DNA from: Vezdaea acicularis
Lineage: Eukaryota
NCBI GenBank assembly: GCA_026025075.1
Contig: JAPEUI010000101.1
Coordinates: 1-58,820 of the forward strand
DNA length: 58,820 bases
Direction: 5' to 3'
Shown: piece by piece, positions 1 through 9,971 of the stretch
Layout: each line of letters starts with the position of its first letter
How positions within the stretch are numbered: the first letter of the stretch is position 1
The notes under the pieces: model-generated
What the model was told of the DNA's origin: nothing
Seen by the model: the letters and a program-made list of their open reading frames with translations, nothing else
Databases searched by the model: none
Position numbers and translations under genes: made by a program

Positions 1-933
1 CTTTCAACAACGACAAAATACCCCTGCTTATTGAAAGCACTTAGGCCGTCTTGAGCTTAGACCCGCTTCCTGACGGCCAATAGAATTGTTCGATAAACAC
101 ATCCCGGCCGTGATGCTGGCAATGTCGCATGTGACAGCCTAACTGGGCCTAAGTGCTTTCAACAACAACGAAATACCCCTGCTTATTGAAAGCACTTAGG
201 CCATCTTAAGCTTAGACCCGCTTCCTGACGGCCAATAGAATTGTTCGATAAACACATCCCGGCCGTGATGCTGGCAATGTTGGGTGTGACAGCCTAATTG
301 GGCTTAAGTGCTTTCAATAACAACAAAATACCCCTGCTTATTGAAAGCACTTAGGCCGTCTTGAGCTTAGACCCGTTTTCTGACGCCAATGAAATTGTTC
401 GATAAACACATCCTGGCTGTGATGCTAGCGGTGTCGGGTGTAACAGCCTAATCGGGCCTAAGTGCTTTCAACAACAACGAAATACCCCTGCTTATTGAAA
501 GCACTTAAGCCGTCTTGAGCTTAGACCCGTTTTCTGACGGCCAATAGAATTGTTCGATAAACACATGCTGGCTGTGATGCTGGCAATGTCGGATGTGACA
601 GCCTAATCGGGCCTAAGTGCTTTCAACAACAACAAAATACCTCTGCTTATTGAAAGCACTTAGGCCGTCTTGAGCTTAGACCCGTTTCTTGACGGCCAAT
701 AGAATTGTTCGATAAACACATCCTGGCCGTGATGCTGGCAATGTGGGGTGTGACAGTCTAATCGGGCCTAAGTGCTTTCAATAAGCAGGGGTATTTCGTT
801 GTTGTTGAAAGCACTTAGGCCATCTTGAGCTTAGTCCCGTTTCTTGACGGCCAATAGAAATGTTTGATAAAGACATTTGGGCTTTGAGGCTGAAAATGTT
901 ATTTGTGACAGCCTAATTGGGCCTAAGTGCTTT
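1..933. repeat. ~155-bp tandem array (6 units plus the left arm of a 7th, probably continuing off the window); each unit has a 17-bp inverted repeat around a 23-nt loop
   Basis: The unit marker CTTTCAA recurs at 1, 156, 311, 465, 620 and 775. Arms are GGCCTAAGTGCTTTCAA / TTGAAAGCACTTAGGCC (e.g. 146-162 / 186-202). Confidence 0.97.
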
Positions 934-1059
934 TCAGATCGAGGGAGTAGAAATAAATAAATTAAAAGCTATGCCGACAAACTTTAAGTGTTAAGACAAG
1001 GATCAATGATCAGTAACTCAGAATCAATTTCAGAAAGCCTGAAGGGTAAAAATAGTTCG

Positions 1060-1775
1060 CAGATCAAAGATTGATGTCTCGAAATCAATTCCAAAGGATC
1101 ATCAGATTGAGAATCGTCAAATCCGTGATCGATGACGCAAAACCGATGCCGGAAGATCAAGAGGGTTGAAACTGGCAGATCAAGAGCTGATCCCAAGAGT
1201 TGATGTCTCAAGATCGATTCCAGAGGATCATCAGATTGGGAATCGTCAAATCCGTGATCAATGACGCAAAACCGATGCCGGAAGACCAGGAGGGCTGGAA
1301 TTGGCAGATTCCTGAAAGACGACTCGGAATCTATTTCAAAAGGCCAGGCGGGTAAAAATCGACAAGTCAAAACCAATGCCGGAAGATCAAGAGGGTTGAA
1401 ACTGGCAGATCAAGAGCTGATCCCAAGAGTTGATGTCTCAAGATCGATTCCAGAGGATCATCAGATTGAGAATCGATAAATCCGTGATCGATGACATAAA
1501 ACTGATGCCACAAGATCAGAAGGGCCAAAATTGGCAAGTTCATCATGGATGACTCGGAATCTATTTCAAAAGGTCAAGAGGGTAAAGATCAACAAGTCAA
1601 AACCAATGCCGGATGATCCAGAGGGTAAAAACTGGCAGATCAAAAAAGTTGATGTCAAGAGTTGATGTATCAAGATCGATTTCAGAGGATCAACAGATTG
1701 AGAATCGACAAATCCGTGATTGATGACGCAAAACTGATGCCAGAGGACTTGAAGATTCAAAATTGGCAATTCTTC
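1060..1775. repeat. Composite tandem array (~129-bp subunit within a ~230-bp higher-order unit)
   Basis: The marker ATGACRYAAAACYGATGCC occurs at 1132, 1261, 1491 and 1723. GATCATCAGATTGAGAATCG-type blocks occur 4 times, and GACTCGGAATCTATTTCAAAAGG occurs at 1321 and 1551. Confidence 0.93.
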
Positions 1776-1868
1776 ACTCAATGTCTGGAAACTGCTGCCA
1801 GAACATTGAATCTATCAAAATTGACAGATTGAAATCCATTCCACGATGATGACCACGCAAAACATCGA

Positions 1869-4800
1869 TCAGTTTTCTCTGGTTCTTTCCAGTTGATTTT
1901 TGAATTCTAAAGCTAGATTTAGCTTGGTGTCTATGCCAAATTGTATTGGATTTTTGATTAATCCGGAGTCTTCAGAATGAATGTCACCTTCAGTCAAAAG
2001 AAGAAGCTGATCTGCTCTCGTCAGTTGTTCATGAATTTCTTGCCAATGTGGATTTGATCCAGTACTAAGACGGCTCTCCTGCTGGACTGATTGCTCCAAA
2101 GCTTCAAACATTCCAAAATACAGTGGATTCAGCTGCGGGATAACCCAGTTGGTCCGAGACAATGTTTCCATCTCTTGCAGCATTTCAAAAGTCTTGGGCG
2201 CATTGTGCTTTGAAGCTGTTCGTATGACAGAGAGTTTGTCAATATTGTACTGCGGTATGATCCACATCTTTTGGCAAGCGTGAAGATTGATCACTTTTTC
2301 AAAGCTTTTTGATGTCTTTGGTCCTAGCACATCTTTGACAATATGTCGAAGCCGGCGTTTCCATTCTCGAAATGGGCTGTGTTCCCATCCACGTTTTTTG
2401 ACTGCGCCAGGCATGTTATCATCTAAACCAAACAGTCCAGCAATGCGGCCAATCCAGGTACCAGTATTGTATTGATCCAAAAGGCTCACACCACGACGGG
2501 CGGCTTTTTTAACTAGGATCAGATGCGGCGGCATCTCCAGAAGTCTTGTTAAAAGATCATAGCTAAATCCCTCTAGGCCTTTAGACTGTATTGCATCAAA
2601 GCGTTCTTGGACTATGTCTATTCTTGGATCCAATTCCTTGGAACGTTGACGCAGAATATCAAGGATCTCCAGTTGATAGGATTGAATGATCAATTCAGCT
2701 CCTAGTTGAAATACCCATTTGCGCGCATGAGGATCCAAGCTCTCCTTAGGAAAAGTCAGTGACCGCTGCAACCATTCCCGAAAAAGCGCCAACTCTCGAT
2801 GTTCTTGCTGAAGAAGATTCTGAATCCTCAAGGTTTGGTTTCTTTGTCTACCAAATCCATTGATTGCTAGTCCTAGTCGAGGAATGATATCTGGCTTGAA
2901 CATTGGAAGACCTTCCCATAGGATTAAATCTGAGGGCAACCAAGCTAAACCAGTCTGTTCTAAACTTTTGCGATAATCCAGCCCTAGACGTGTTGAAACT
3001 TCATTTGATTCGTCTTCTGTCTCTGATTCACTCTCATTTTCTCGGTCTGGATATGGTTTGCATTTCCACTTATGCAACCAGAGAGATCGGTGGTGTAATT
3101 TTCGGAGGCTTCCTAGATTGGCTTTTAAGGTTCTGATGATAGCGCTAACCATCACACCATTGATCATCTGTTGCTCTGCAGATGCAGGAGAAAGTCCAAC
3201 GGGCCCTGGATTAACTTGACAGATCAATGCTTCTAGACACATCAACCATCGATTGATGTCATATCCGATATATGTATTGACATCTTTGGTTCGGAAGACA
3301 AAATAGGGCCGGTGTTGATGTGGATCATTGCTTGCTGCGTCATTTAAAGCAGCATCCAACTGTAGGCGGGAAAAACGTTCAAGAGTCATTCGATATTCTT
3401 GCCGTACACCAAAGCAGGTATCAATGGTAGAACATATCGCTTGATTTACCCGTTGTTTAGCATGTTGATATATCTTTAGCAGATGCTGGCGTTTGTCTAG
3501 ATGGGAGGTTTGCCTGCCCCGATAGCTCAACCCATACCAACGGTTGAGCAGGTCTTGATCATATGCTAATCCTTCCAGCTGCTGATGATCAAATGGAACC
3601 AATCCTTTTACTGGAGTAGTAAAGAGATCTTTATGAAGGCTATAAGCTTTGTTAAAAGCAATTCCGCCTTTGGCATGCCATTTGTTTGTTGGCAATATTT
3701 CAGCACGAGTTGACATGATATCTCGAGTTAATGCCCAAGGAAACTCTTGAGTGCGAAGAAGTGATGATCTTTGATCCACAGCTTGAAATTGAATATTCCA
3801 GCTGGCACAACATTTGGATTTTCGCAAAAGAGTTACTGCTTCATTCTGAAATGGTTCTGGAGTGTCTTCCAGTCCTAAATCTATCTAACATTTCTGTGCA
3901 GGCATGTAGCGTTCATTGGCATGAAAACATCGACGGAGATGACGGAAATAATCTTGTCGAACCTGTTGAGGATCAAGCTTCTTGGTGAAGAGCTTTAGAT
4001 TGTGCCCTTGCACAATCAAAAACACCCCTCGAAAAATGGCGAATCTAGGGCTGTTGCATTTCTGCAAGACAAGATTCCAAAAACAATCCAAATACTCCTC
4101 AGGAATGCAATATCGAAGATCTATTGGCGGTTGCACACCGGTAGGATGCCATTCTTGTTTGGCGGTTGATTTGATTTTAACTTCTGCAAAACTTCGAGGA
4201 TGATGTTGCAAAATATCATTTGGACAACTTTTGCGCAAGGACGGAATGATAATGTTGTCAATCCATTCCTCCTGTTGTATATCTGTCAAATGAGTTCCAT
4301 CCCGATGAAGAACAGGCATATGAGGAAAGAAAACATGGCACTGATAATTGAATCCGGCAGAGGCAAGTCCATGTCCTAATCTTTGGTTTTTTAACTGATG
4401 CAGGCGTTTTCTTTGAAATCTAACATAAGGATTTTGCGTCACACGTCGCAAGTATGGAGGACGATAGGCTAGATCAAATCCATCCCGATGTACGCCTAAA
4501 CTGGTAACCTCTGCTATCAAGCTGTCCACATCCCAACGACGAGATATTTGAAGAGAAGATTCTTGAATGGGGATACCAGACTCTATTTCCGAACAGGAAA
4601 CATTTAGACTTGGAGGATTTCCATCTTCCCCCGCTAATAATGCTTTCCAAGCAATGTTCTGATAGTCTCCGTGTCTTCCATCTCTTGGTAACAGATTTTC
4701 ATAATTTATCGGAAAGGTATTAGAGTGACTGGAACTGTCCCTTCTTGGCATATGCCTACTCCAATATTGACACATTTCCTTAAATCCTAAGCCCAATTCA

Positions 4801-5492
4801 TCTGATAAATTTGTTCCTGCATTGCAAGAACAAGTGGTGCTCCAGGATTTTTGTAGTCGTTCATCAATCTCATGATCCAATCCTAAAGCATCGTCTGAAT
4901 TTGTTTCACTCAATGTAAAAGATTGAGTGTCTGCAATATCATCGTCTCTTTCCAAGACATCAGACGCTATACTGGAAGAGATATCTGAGCTGTCCAAAAG
5001 CTCTAAAGGTTGTCTGAAGGCTTTCAACTCAAGTCTGGCCTCATCAGCAACATCTAATTGGCCTTGAATAGTTGATGGTTCCTGATTTGATGCAAATGAT
5101 AGATTTAGAAGTTCATTGGATTCCGAATTGACTTCATCTGAAGTAGTTGAATGATGATCTAGTAGAATATTTAAGTCAATATCAGATTCTTCAGATGCTT
5201 CTGCCGGCAAAAGAGGATGATCTGCTTCTGGATTAGACTCAACATCAAGTTGGGCATCAGCAAAAAGATTGACAAGTCCATCAAAAGGCTCATTCTGTTC
5301 ACTTGCAGCATGCAAAACTGGTGAGGAAATTGATGGAGCCAAAATAGCTGGAATAGATGATGATGTGGATTCTGGTAAGACGCTTAGTGGTATTGATGAA
5401 TAGGGCTGATTCAAGGTTCTAAGTTGATAACGATTTTGCCGTGCTTGTTAAGCCTGCAGCTTTTCTGCTTGAGTCTTTGCTTTTCGCCCCAT
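1869..5492 (-). pseudogene. Intronless ~1207-aa uncharacterised protein (putative mobile-element protein) interrupted by two in-frame stops
   Basis: ATG at 5492 (MGRKAKTQAEKLQA*QARQNRYQ) is in frame with the 509-aa ORF. That ORF is in frame with the 652-aa ORF across TAG 3887-3885 (QKC*IDLGLEDTP...VTLLRKSK). The N-terminus is acidic and low complexity, followed by a motif-rich core. Confidence 0.8.
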
Positions 5493-5588
5493 GATTTTGA
5501 TGGAAGACATCAAATGCTATTGCGGATGCGTTGATATTTATTGACATGGTAGGAAGGCCACTTATGGCTTATAGTGACGTGTCTATAA

Positions 5589-5922
5589 TAACCAATCACA
5601 AGTAGAATAAACCGTCAAGCGTGATATGAAAACTGCTTATTCCATTTTTGTTAGGTCTGATTTAATGGAACTAACCAATTGCGAATTGATTTAGCTTAAG
5701 CGAGATTAACACAAGCAATTTTCATACATGCGCGATTTTTTTTATCCAATGATTCAATGACACGGCAGGATATTAGAAGTTGTATGGTCGCTACCATAGA
5801 TAGAGCACACTAAAAATTGAAGTGTAACCAATGAGATGAGGAATAAACCGTCAAGCGCCGTTAGTCCTTGACGCCAAGCAAAACGAAAGCGCGCTTGACG
5901 GTTTATTCATCGTTTAATAGGC
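5589..5922. promoter_or_regulatory. Three copies of CC(A/T)AT-N8-GAATAAACCGTCAAGCG, two of which form an 18-bp perfect inverted repeat
   Basis: Direct copies at 5605-5621 and 5841-5857, inverted copy at 5892-5908. Hairpin arms are 5841-5858 / 5891-5908. It lies just upstream of the ATG at 5492. Confidence 0.7.
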
Positions 5923-6600
5923 TGCGTTGCATTAGAGGCGCATACTAATGCTCGCTTATGCACAAATAACCAATTAGCATCTATGCCGTTCCTCCACTAC
6001 AACCACGTCATCCCGGTATGCAACCATCTTCTAGGCCGTCTGGCTGCTGGAAGAAATTCCCATAATCCTAATCGTGTCACATCATCAATGTTTGGTTTTT
6101 TAGATGCGCCACACACCATAAGAACAAGCGGGTTAGATTTAGGCTACGCAAGTAAACAAGCAGTCATCAAGGTGCTTTGGCATGGTAAAAATGTCTAATA
6201 TGCTTGTTTGAAGATTGGATGACCATCCATATGAATTTTCTGATTTTTCACTTTCTCTCACTGTCACGCAGGCCGCTGCTGCTGATTGCAATTGACCTAT
6301 CTTATATAGACCGAATCAAAAGATTCTAGAGGCAGGGTTCAACAACGCAGATATCGATTGCCTGTTGTGCAAAATCATACGAGAATGTGAAGCAGTTGTT
6401 CACTGGAAAGCATGGATAGAAGATATATTCGCTGCCAGAAAAGGTTCTTGAAGAGGGAGCGAATGGTTTCTTGTTGCTTCTTCGAGTGAAGCAGGAGAGA
6501 CTGCAATCGGCAATTGTCAGAAAATGCGACTGCATATCTATTGTACCTGCATGACGTCGTCAGTGTGCCCGTCGCCTACGCACCCTTTCAACGAAATGAA

Positions 6601-7251
6601 ATGCCACCAGCATCTCCAACCTTCTGGAATTCAATCACTTTCCTTGTATTAATCACCCTCGCGTTCTTCCCTGGATTTTTCATTGGCACTCTTCGGGCTC
6701 CCTTGAGGCTACTTTTGGTGCCGTTCGCCTCACAGCCCCGAAACACGGAAACAACGGATATGTCGTGGATGCAGAAGACCTTCTCCTTACCAGCCAAGTC
6801 TCGTGGCTCCTACCTCATCACCGATGAAATCGAACGACATGTACCGGAGATACGAAGTTACAAAGTCGGGCTAGTCAATTTATTCATGCAACACACATCT
6901 TGCGCTATAACGCTGAATGAAAATTGGGACGAGGATGTAAGAGCAGACATGAGCGATGCTTTAGACCGGATCGCACCTGAGGACCGCAAGGGGGAAATTT
7001 ATAGGCATTCAGCAGAGGGATTAGACGACATGCCGGTTTGTGCTACTTCGACTTCTTCTAAATGCGATTTGACATAATCAACTTTTGAACAGGCCCATAT
7101 CAAGTCAGCTCTTATCGGTGCTTCAATCACTGTGCCTATCAAAGACGGTAAGCTAGCTTTGGGCACTTGGCAAGGCATATGGTATCTAGAATTCAGAGCA
7201 GCAAAGCACGCGCGGAAGGTGGTAGCTACAATACAGGGACAGAAAGTATGA
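6601..7251 (+). CDS. YjbQ/UPF0047 family protein (secondary thiamine-phosphate synthase-like)
   Basis: Motifs [26 protein letters not shown] and LGTWQGIW. Intron 7036-7092. The conserved start is probably ATG 6760 (MSWMQK), with an optional hydrophobic extension from 6601. Confidence 0.9.
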
Positions 7252-7867
7252 GAGTGCCGATCCTTGTTAGGTTACGAGCAGAAGGAGTAGTCTACATAGT
7301 AAGGTCAAAATCATACCTGGGTAACTTTTTCTCCCTCGGAGTTTTGGGCAATATTGTTCTCAGCGTCTTAATGGTACGAACAGAATCTTGCAACGGGCAT
7401 AGCATGGATCCTCGTCATCTTCGCAATGATGTTTACAAGGCATGGCAAAATTTATACAAAGGATCTATTGGCGATAATAGATAGTACAATGAAATCACAT
7501 ATAAAACGAAGTGGATGGTAGTGGTAACAATATCTACTCGTTGAACACGGGAAAGTTCCCATCAAGAGTAGTATATTGTATATCATCATGGGCTTGCCGT
7601 TGTTAACATGAAAGGTCATAGACTCGTATTTACAGATGCCATGTCCAGAGCAATGAAGGACTTCAAGAGCACAGGTACTGAGCCATTATACCAGATGTAA
7701 TTCAGAGTCGCCAGTAGAAGCTTCAAAAGAATTTGCTCACATGCCGGAATGGAACACTCCCAGATAGGACAAATTGACTCCCATCGCAGGCTTTCTAAGT
7801 GCAGTCAGCGATTGTTATTCACACCTACAGATGATACCCTTCTTACCTGTAGCTGACATAAGACTCT

Positions 7868-8671
7868 TCAAGTTGGAGGGGTTCTGAGGAAGTAATGATG
7901 CCCTTCACCATAAGCTACCCAACGACCCGGTTGGAGGTGATCGTTGATTGCCGCGATGTCCCTTAGAACATACGTTCCGTCCAACTCACAGACATAGTAT
8001 TGGATCGTGATATCATCACGATTGGCAGGTACCATATCAATAGGGCCTCCGCCGCCAGTGGTGGTCGCTATGATGGCGTCTTCTTGTTGAACCTCTGACC
8101 GCGTGTTGCCGTACCAAACGTAGCCCTCTAGCTTCGGTGCAGGGGCGGGCGGGGGCCCAGGTGCAGCTTCTTGTAACGTAGGAGGGTAGTAGACTCCCGG
8201 ATGAACCCACGGAGGGTAAGCCAAAGGATGAGTTGACTATGAAAAGAGTTTGATGGTTAGTGAAAGTTTAATGATTGTTTGGACGCATCGACCAACATCA
8301 TACGGGTATCCTGAGTAGAGATGTTGTGCTCCATAGTGGAGAAAGTATGGGTAAACTGAGTACGGTGTCTGGGGCCATAATTGGAGATTGCACGGAGAAT
8401 TTGGTGGAGGATTCTGTGGAGGGTTTGGCGGAAGGTTTGGCGGCGGATTTGGCGGCGGGTTTGGTGGAGGATTAGGTGAAGGATTTGACATGGCAGTAGG
8501 CACTGGCTCAGGTACTGGCTGAGCTAGAGGTGCTTCATGTGGATTGTCGAACCTTGGTATGTAGGTGTAAGTGATTGGCCCATCAGGACCAACAGCTGGG
8601 ACTTGAGGTCCATGCTCGGGCTGCCCTTGGCTGAGTAACCACCAGTCTTGCCCTGACTGGTTGGCAGCCAT
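7868..8671 (-). CDS. Proline-rich hypothetical protein
   Basis: Two ORFs can be joined by an intron of ~8295-8237. Contains PPPN repeats and a globular-looking C-terminus (YYVCELDGTY...LQPGRW). Confidence 0.6.
8398..8487 (-). repeat. 12-bp coding minisatellite (PPPN-type repeats)
   Basis: Translation reads SNPSPNPPPNPPPNPPPNLPPNPPQNPPPNS. Confidence 0.8.
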
Positions 8672-9971
8672 GGCCGAAAGCTCAGAGAAAATGAAACCTC
8701 AGGCTTGTTGCAGAGACCATCAAAGTAGGTAATTCCCCAGTGAAGTGAGAGTAAGAAAGAATTTGACCCGCGTAAGACAGGCAAGGGAAGCGGGAGTGAT
8801 TCAGGAAGCAACGTCCGTTGGCTGATGAGCGCAAGAGGTCACGATCACAATTTGGAATAAACTCACAGCGATGACTCCAGGGTGTTCAGTTGGCACATAG
8901 ATCCAAGCCCTAGGCCTCGGCTCCTTTGGGGGTGCTTGAAAGAAGATGTCCGTAAAGGGCCAGCAGCACATGGTTATTTAATTGGCGAATTGGAGTTAGA
9001 AGGATTCTCACTTCGCATTAATTCAAGCCGCAAATGGTCGGAGTTTAGCAAGAACTGTGCGTCTGTGTGAGGCCTTGTTTCTCGATTCGATTGAAGCTTC
9101 GATCATCAAACACAGTGCTTAGCCTTTCGAATAGCTGGCCTCTCAATTGTATAAGGTCCATTGGGAAAGGAAAGGGACTATATAATAGACTGAATATACA
9201 AACTCTAGGCTAACTAGACACGATTTTTGTATGAAGGAATTGATGCCTTGGCTATCAAGGCTTTGATGCTAAGTGCAGCCCACGGAAATGGAAATAGCGG
9301 CCACGAGTCAGGGAGGTGATGGTCGTAATACAGGCCCGTATCATACCTTTTCACGTACTCATCTGGCGTAAAAGAACACATATGGACGTTCACGCCGAGT
9401 CAAAGCATTTGAGTGCTTAGAATACCAGCGAACGACCAGCCATCGTACGTCAGAGACGGACAGGAGGAAATAAGTAGGCAAGGTCGATATATAGCTTTCG
9501 GAACCTGGGAAGAATACGAACATACTGAGGAAATCGCGCTACGCCGCTTCATAGGCCATCTCCACGCGCAAAAAGACGCAAGAGTCACAACCCACGAACC
9601 GGCGCTCTTCACGGTTCAATTAGGTAGACTAAAGTAGACCTAGGTGGAGGGGAGGCTATTCACTGTACTAGCAGGGCCTTAAGGACAAGGACGCTTCGTT
9701 GAGCATTGTGAAGGCTGCTGCGCGGTCGAGGCCTATACGCGACACCAGCCGTCGAAGGGCATGAGGGGTAAGCGTAGAAATGCAATAGCAGGCGGAATTG
9801 AGCGCTAGGACGCGCTACAGTAGAGCGCCTAGCGTTTCTGCATTCTATCCGTGTCCAGCTTTCGCAAGGGCTTGGCATCATACCCTGTCAGGGTTATTTA
9901 CACACCCTGCGTGCCTGACAGGTCAGAACAACCATTGCTGAGGTGCAGAATGGGCCTGAACGTTGCTCGAA

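Follow-up and report, generated by a model that had tools for sequence, protein, structure and literature searches.

The first six kilobases of contig JAPEUI010000101.1 of Vezdaea acicularis (assembly GCA_026025075.1) contain a long intronless open reading frame (ORF) interrupted by two stop codons, two tandem arrays downstream of it and a set of repeated 17-bp sites upstream. Positions 1 to 58,820 of the forward strand were analysed and are referred to below as the window. A preliminary description, made from the sequence alone, had presented this region as a candidate undescribed fungal mobile element whose protein acts on its own hairpin or iteron-like sites. The comparisons reported here suggest that window positions 1-6090 are probably a subtelomeric repeat block carrying a dead gene copy, rather than a cut-and-paste or rolling-circle transposon.

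Organization of the locus

The features of the locus are given below; those without a strand have none assigned.

1..933: array 1, a 155-bp satellite (Tandem Repeats Finder, TRF: period 155, 6.0 copies, 89% matches), which reaches the first base of the window
781..807: flipped loop of the unit-6 hairpin of array 1, identical by direct reading to the reverse complement of the units 1-5 loop
1138-1776: array 2, a 230-bp repeat (TRF: period 230, 2.8 copies); a 129-bp sub-period starts at 1067
1869..5492, minus strand: pseudogene of 1207 codons closed by TGA at 1869-1871, member of a large family of unnamed Pezizomycotina genes
3011..3130, minus strand: acidic low-complexity stretch of the ORF, occupied by 115-121 other letters in other copies (joints and loose ends of contigs from public runs)
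3885-3887, minus strand: in-frame TAG, codon 536, where the paralogue P0002 has a tryptophan
5448-5450, minus strand: in-frame TAA, codon 15, from the reading of frame 5492..1872
5605..5621, plus strand: first copy of the 17-mer, with a CCAAT box ahead of it
5841..5908: second (5841-5857, direct) and third (5892-5908, inverted) copies of the 17-mer, forming a hairpin with an 18-bp stem upstream of the ORF
6059..6071: imperfect telomere-like motif on the block side of the edge and close to it, read in C-strand orientation and differing from two CCCTAA units by no more than 2 edits
6090..6090: position at which the repeated segment ends on the right, as marked by one contig of run X1 that is capped with telomere repeats and by a 17-kb contig of run X5 that diverges
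6490..7481, plus strand: UPF0047/YjbQ family gene with an intron (Pfam), the first chromosome-unique gene

Most of the elements first noticed in the sequence were recovered: a long intronless frame (5492..1872) with its two in-frame stops, two different arrays downstream, one of them with strong hairpins and a flipped loop, and triplicated 17-bp sites with an 18-bp hairpin upstream. The genes adjoining the frame are divided among several ORFs, as introns would give, in agreement with the intron-rich genome assumed at the outset. The N-terminal ~280 residues of the window protein are acidic and of low complexity, and the conserved core corresponds to residues ~280-1207. The gene model of P0002 omits residues 785-851, to be compared with the acidic stretch at 3011..3130. 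The long acidic disordered region is preceded at the very N-terminus (5425-5492) by ~25 strongly basic residues, which resemble the N-terminus of the homologue P0017 and may be a nuclear-targeting or DNA-binding tail.

Repetition of the block and its right edge

At least three versions of the gene exist in Vezdaea-like data: the window copy, P0002 and P0024. The latter two are proteins of Vezdaea acicularis, P0002 being 96% identical to the window protein over residues 392-784 and 100% over 852-1207, and P0024 being 90% identical to it. Parts of positions 1-9000 were contained in eight public runs, and the Logan contigs of four of them were aligned to this interval. Run X1 provided 107 contigs, of which 24 matched at 99% identity or more, 41 at 95-99%, 31 at 90-95% and 11 below 90%. 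Many short diverged contigs lay over the ORF and array 2, as is expected of repeats, indicating that the block is repeated. Summed depth in X1, which is not a copy number, was ~20-63 in the ORF and array-2 bins versus ~11 for 6090-9000. The gene is not a single-copy, syntenic host gene.

Two organisms place a boundary at the same position. Record 5 of X1 (2368 nt) matches 6090-8427 with 2 differences. Its first 30 letters lie outside this match and include three CCCTAA units, oriented as they would be at a left chromosome end. In this near-identical genome, as represented by a single contig, a telomere occupies the place of the window's ORF and arrays. Run X5 comes from a relative ~90% alike; its record 19 (17,268 nt) matches 5517-6090 with 52 differences and then passes into unrelated sequence, while record 20 (52,872 nt), on the UPF0047 side, covers 6522-8999 and begins only 226 nt ahead of 6522. 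Based on these three records, position 6090 was taken as the edge of the repeated block in both organisms, which gives the block a discrete right end.

The telomere-like motif at 6059-6071 was spotted after the boundary was known and therefore adds weak support; 21 telomere-like 10-nt bins of that kind are present in the 58.8 kb window. A second telomere-like motif, in G-strand orientation, is located at 6123-6139, ~35 nt right of 6090, and faces the first one. Perfect TTAGGG or CCCTAA hexamers were absent from window positions 1-7000. Right of the block (6.5-58.8 kb), Pfam searches of the window identified housekeeping genes, and no part of 1-6500 was found to recur elsewhere in the window. 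Within a minus-strand ORF of this flank, a 12-bp (36-bp) tandem repeat, GGAGGATTTGGT, is present in 7.8 copies at 8393-8487 and is probably a glycine-rich coding repeat.

Homologous loci and their helicase neighbours

A scan of metagenome contigs yielded 37 loci bearing the family gene, about 24 of them independent. The ORF is intact (~890-1320 codons) at L001, L002, L004, L011, L015, L016 and L018, and broken at L006, L021, L022, L028, L030, L031/32 and L025-27. At L003/4/5/12, a 1583-codon ORF, P0168, lies ~680 bp downstream of the family gene and combines an OrsD (C2H2-like) domain with a RecQ-family core (RECQ5, 1.5e-37). The same C2H2/OrsD plus RecQ architecture is given for the telomere-linked helicase (TLH) of Botrytis cinerea in the accessible portion of a published report (10.1101/2022.03.07.483234), and P0168 was assigned to the TLH type on this basis. 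Pieces of a TLH-like gene were also found upstream of the family gene at L016, L019 and L028. A second kind of neighbour, a Rad5/SNF2-like gene, adjoins the family gene at L011, L014, L015, L031/32 and L034; RAD5 is the best solved relative of P0169, which belongs to this kind (2.3e-12).

Altogether, a helicase neighbour was present at 9 of the ~24 independent loci, and at 7 of the ~12 with at least 5 kb of flank. The family gene shares its orientation with the helicase gene in all nine cases (9/9). The two genes are even joined at L016:9824-13774, where the first ~750 family residues continue, in a single 1317-codon frame, as the C-terminal half of a Rad5/SNF2-like helicase with homology to the L011 neighbour; the fusion could be real or the result of a deletion between neighbouring genes.

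At L003/L005, a two-gene unit lies between related 12-mer arrays ~11.4 kb apart, the order being a 12-mer array containing TTAGGG, the family gene, the TLH gene and the related 12-mer array. L003 was the only locus with perfect tandem telomere hexamers near a homologue. The 12-mer array at the end of L003/L005 was considered as a true telomere and rejected, its G-strand orientation being opposite to that required and fitting a border repeat. Downstream of the TLH-like gene, L004:12300-15853 and L012:8300-11873 consist of several kb of very AT-rich degenerate 12-27-bp repeats, resembling heavily point-mutated repeat DNA. At L006, direct repeats of 55-84 bp (86-93% identity; L006:64-347 and L006:5373-5486) flank a 5.3-kb unit with a broken family gene, and 12-13-bp minisatellites occur in both orientations around this gene.

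A large and conserved protein family

The conserved core (residues 280-1207, with X at the stop positions) was used as the query for protein searches. A word-indexed search returned 22 proteins, and an exhaustive search of 50%-identity representatives returned 664 clusters at E<=0.001, 404 at 1e-10 and 160 at 1e-30. With the stops bridged in this way, as the preliminary description had proposed, the search revealed a large family. All named members are annotated as 'hypothetical protein' and come from Vezdaea acicularis, Coniosporium apollinis, C. tulheliwenetii, Flavoplaca, Xylographa, Teloschistes, Pycnora, Stereocaulon, Lepidopterella, Metarhizium guizhouense and Ilyonectria. The distribution is patchy over several Pezizomycotina classes. 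Intact copies are under strong purifying selection, as deduced from ratios of nonsynonymous to synonymous substitution rates (dN/dS) of 0.11-0.15 in four pairs.

No Pfam family was detected at E<=1 in either half of the window frame, and hence no known domain of a transposase, integrase, recombinase, HUH endonuclease, Rep protein, reverse transcriptase or helicase; the preliminary description, too, had recognized no DDE, tyrosine recombinase, HUH/Helitron, reverse transcriptase or helicase motifs. Twenty long or divergent members (long forms of 1376-1713 aa) gave no credible Pfam domain. Among 37 further members, the Pfam rows were scattered and at chance level, the sole credible one being the helicase C-terminal domain of the L016 ORF. 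In particular, no DDE/RNase H-like transposase domain was found by Pfam in the window protein or its 37 relatives, and the Starship auxiliary domain DUF3723 (PF12520) was absent from the Pfam results of the window protein and its relatives.

Structural comparisons were similarly without a counterpart. Profiles built from 14 and from 54 sequences had 0 matches at E<=10 in a sequence search of the PDB. AlphaFold2 models were confident, both for 928 residues (predicted local distance difference test, pLDDT, 89.2; predicted template modelling score, pTM, 0.82) and for the N-terminal alpha/beta domain of 326 residues (pLDDT 92.8, pTM 0.89). Foldseek found no match at E<=0.001 to the PDB with both models, nor to BFVD. 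Across 54 family sequences, a tyrosine, an aspartate, a lysine and an arginine are invariant. In the ESM Atlas, the clusters nearest to residues 70-400 of P0003 were those of phage integrases and of the ResT/TelK telomere resolvases (0.87-0.88), with 94-105 of 256 features shared, which is below the trust level. The VIA lists contained no tyrosine recombinase fold, and Pfam gave no match to one. Taken with the invariant tyrosine, these Atlas neighbours are leads, not evidence, towards an enzyme that might cut DNA through a tyrosine. The whole protein reached 0.90 in the Atlas with unnamed bacterial clusters (88-90 shared features), a result judged to be due to chance.

Hairpins, arrays and termini

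Every unit of array 1 contains a perfect 17-bp inverted repeat with a ~23-nt loop. Folded as single-stranded DNA, its hairpins reached -18.1 and -19.9 kcal/mol (z-scores of -6.4 and -6.9), values equalled by 0 of 200 shuffled sequences. The flipped loop of unit 6 is most simply explained by an inversion between the hairpin arms. Array 2 showed no significant hairpin (z -0.18). It is multicopy and variable in copy number in the public runs, where joints skip 461 and 469 bases, equivalent to two units. The four public runs provided no contig cover of array 1 (1-900), which is uninformative either way. Upstream of the ORF, the hairpin formed by the 17-mers at 5841..5908 folded at -25.9 kcal/mol (z -6.6). 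Several CCAAT boxes surround the 17-mer sites, and these boxes and the 17-mers may together be promoter elements.

These structures had suggested a protein acting on its own hairpin or iteron sites, possibly through rolling-circle or rolling-hairpin intermediates, and a check of whether homologues elsewhere also sit beside hairpin arrays had been recommended. The related loci lend no support to such a link. The window's arrays were shared by 0 of the 37 loci, and blastn of the first 12 kb of the window against these loci gave no 200-nt match. Minisatellites of 12-13 bp and arrays of 40-105 bp are common near the homologues. Fifteen arrays beside homologues, selected for a period of ~40 bp or more, were folded: none (0/15) reached z <= -4, and four (4/15) reached z <= -2.5. 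The best-folding one (L002:7471-7635, z -3.14) has an 86-bp unit with a TTAGGG/CCCTAA palindrome and precedes an intact family ORF by ~2 kb. Terminal inverted repeats were not detected around the gene, either in the window (6090 edge versus 900-2000) or at L002, L011, L015 and other loci. Between L003 and L006 (89%), homology ends at the ends of the ORF.

The same observations bear on the best-placed alternative, an autonomous DNA transposon of an undescribed superfamily, whose large protein would be a transposase or recombinase, perhaps tyrosine-linked, acting on the hairpin or 17-mer sites. Its multicopy nature, patchy taxonomy, intronless ORF and mixture of intact and decayed copies would suit a transposon, as would the sharp right edge near 6090 in two species and the four invariant residues. 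We nevertheless regard this explanation as unlikely. Terminal inverted repeats were found neither between the visible ends nor around the homologues, and no target-site duplication could be defined in a block whose left end is itself undefined. The arrays that would serve as substrates do not accompany the family, and no homologue array approaches the folding of array 1. Neither the window protein nor its 37 relatives matched a Pfam transposase, integrase or Rep at E<=1, and the two compared copies share the ORF and nothing beyond its ends.

Traces of point mutation

The region had also been described as carrying mutations like those of repeat-induced point mutation (RIP), and this claim is weak. 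Among the array-1 units, 42 of 54 differences are transitions (C>T 17, G>A 11, T>C 8 and A>G 6), and both in-frame stops of the ORF are changes of the C>T or G>A type, which lends it weak support. RIP is indicated by a TpA/ApT index above ~0.89 and a (CpA+TpG)/(ApC+GpT) index below ~1.03. The two indices were 0.50 and 1.81 for the ORF, 0.91 and 1.36 for array 1, and 0.11 and 2.28 for array 2, the remainder of the window giving 0.79 and 1.24. Classical RIP was rejected, since neither the ORF nor the arrays pass both thresholds, the indices of the ORF deviating in the wrong direction. Compared with the 96%-identical paralogue P0002, 14 real amino-acid differences imply G>A six times, A>G three times, T>C once and four transversions, so that the mutation spectrum against the closest paralogue appears mixed.

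Interpretation

The assignment of positions 1-6090 to a subtelomeric repeat block implies a definite arrangement. From the chromosome end inward, the block would comprise array 1, array 2, the dead family gene and a CCAAT-rich promoter with the 17-mers, followed by the unique UPF0047/YjbQ gene, and the 3' end of the family gene would face the chromosome end. By the precedents of Y' and TLH elements, homologous recombination or break-induced replication may carry such a block from one chromosome end to another. The arrays would then be subtelomeric satellites, comparable to the helicase-associated repeats of Magnaporthe oryzae, and the gene neighbourhood suggests that the family protein could act on DNA ends together with helicases. 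The initial view of a selfish DNA element is retained insofar as the family is multicopy and patchy, mixes intact with decayed copies and has an edge near 6090; the chromosome-end evidence and the helicase link, however, favour the alternative already named in the preliminary description, that of subtelomeric satellite arrays.

Several observations weigh against a subtelomeric block. The window contains no helicase gene, tblastn of P0168 and P0169 against its whole 58.8 kb giving no match, and it stops short of a telomere. The telomere evidence consists of one Logan contig from one run, with three repeat units only, and a chimeric join at 6090 in the window assembly is possible. A sharp edge common to two species fits a mobile element equally well as a recombination block. 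No helicase was found at L002, L006 and L025-27, and debris of retroelements and Tc1/mariner elements surrounds L002, L006, L016 and L025-27; given such loci, the family has not been shown to be always subtelomeric. Finally, it is by gene neighbourhood only that the protein is linked to DNA-end metabolism.

Another explanation places the family gene, the RecQ-like gene and the Rad5/SNF2-like gene in a larger multi-gene repeat or giant mobile element, such as the X3X3R8 repeat of Parastagonospora nodorum or a Starship-type carrier of cargo, of which the window would show the inner edge only. The co-oriented three-gene neighbourhood over divergent loci, the frame fusing family and SNF2 sequences at L016, and the relation of P0169 to RAD5 are in agreement with such a unit. 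We consider it improbable: no P. nodorum protein is among the named matches of the family searches, and neither the window nor the loci showed a Starship marker such as a DUF3435 captain or DUF3723; what lies to the left of base 1 is out of view.

Little credence, likewise, is given to a bolder proposal, in which the protein would be a new DNA-end processing enzyme, possibly a covalent-tyrosine cutter, forming with TLH-type RecQ and Rad5/SNF2-like helicases a self-propagating, end-seeking gene module of Pezizomycotina, with the flipped-loop satellite as its footprint. Covalent cutting through tyrosine would be performed as in recombinases, telomere resolvases and rolling-circle initiators. Purifying selection on the intact relatives and the lineage-specific arrays might point to an ordinary fast-evolving single-copy host gene beside unrelated satellite DNA, but this is very improbable in view of the existence of three or more Vezdaea-like versions, the numerous diverged contigs that cover the ORF, the flank that differs in a related species, the telomere replacing the ORF in a near-identical genome and the two nonsense codons of the window copy.

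Subtelomeric helicase cassettes, including Y' elements and fungal TLH regions, are already known, and their biology is poorly understood. To this setting, the present data add a large conserved family of 664 clusters, under purifying selection, with confident models that have no solved counterpart and with recurrent RecQ and SNF2 neighbours. Should the three genes act together, they would offer a handle on the rebuilding of fungal chromosome ends or on the spread of cassettes.

Comparison with known systems

Small inversions flanked by hairpins ('flip-flop' loops) occur in organelle and viral DNA. Array 1 resembles them in that one copy carries the segment enclosed by its perfect inverted repeats in reverse orientation. 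It differs in being a nuclear satellite, with one of six units inverted and with no tie to replication or to a neighbouring protein.

The Y' elements of Saccharomyces cerevisiae spread by recombination. Their ORF is a helicase, whereas the window protein has no recognizable helicase domain. The resemblance is one of organization: in the accessible text of one report (PMC1635262), Y' appears, as is proposed for the window block, as a repeat of subtelomeres that holds a long ORF, occurs at some ends and not at others, and has short border repeats containing telomere-like sequence. The X3X3R8 cluster of P. nodorum is multicopy and partly point-mutated, and combines Rad5/SNF2-like helicases with uncharacterised ORFs (PMC3017866). 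The family loci share multiple copies, these helicases, uncharacterised ORFs and partial decay with it, a likeness by description only.

The closest parallels are TLH regions. As far as the accessible parts of the respective reports describe them, the subtelomeres of M. oryzae hold a TLH gene between tandem-repeat blocks that mark the border with unique sequence (PMC1635262), and the TLH regions of Fusarium oxysporum, 6-13 kb in size, are single or arrayed, with telomere repeats on both sides (10.1101/2024.02.27.582403). The tlh genes of S. pombe are reported to be expressed under telomere stress and otherwise silent (PMC1635262). The window block and these regions (M. oryzae TLH region I, F. 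oxysporum TLHcr) are alike in being multicopy, the TLH regions lying between the telomere and chromosome-unique genes. Both have tandem-repeat blocks at the border (arrays 1-933 and 1067-1776 in the window) and telomere-like motifs there, and the 3' end of the gene is directed toward the chromosome end in the TLH regions, as it would be in the window block. Unlike TLH regions, the window block has no RecQ helicase within 58.8 kb, and the second frequent partner of the family is a Rad5/SNF2-like helicase. The unnamed family is not mentioned as a TLH partner in the accessible parts of the three TLH reports (PMC1635262, 10.1101/2022.03.07.483234, 10.1101/2024.02.27.582403), and a full-text literature search on helicase partners, within the text portions it reached, returned none. 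The link between the family and TLH regions is provided by L003/4/5/12, with the family gene ~680 bp upstream of a TLH-type gene. At L003/L005, the bracketed two-gene unit resembles the 6-13-kb regions of F. oxysporum with their telomere repeats on both sides, as these are presented in the accessible part of that report.

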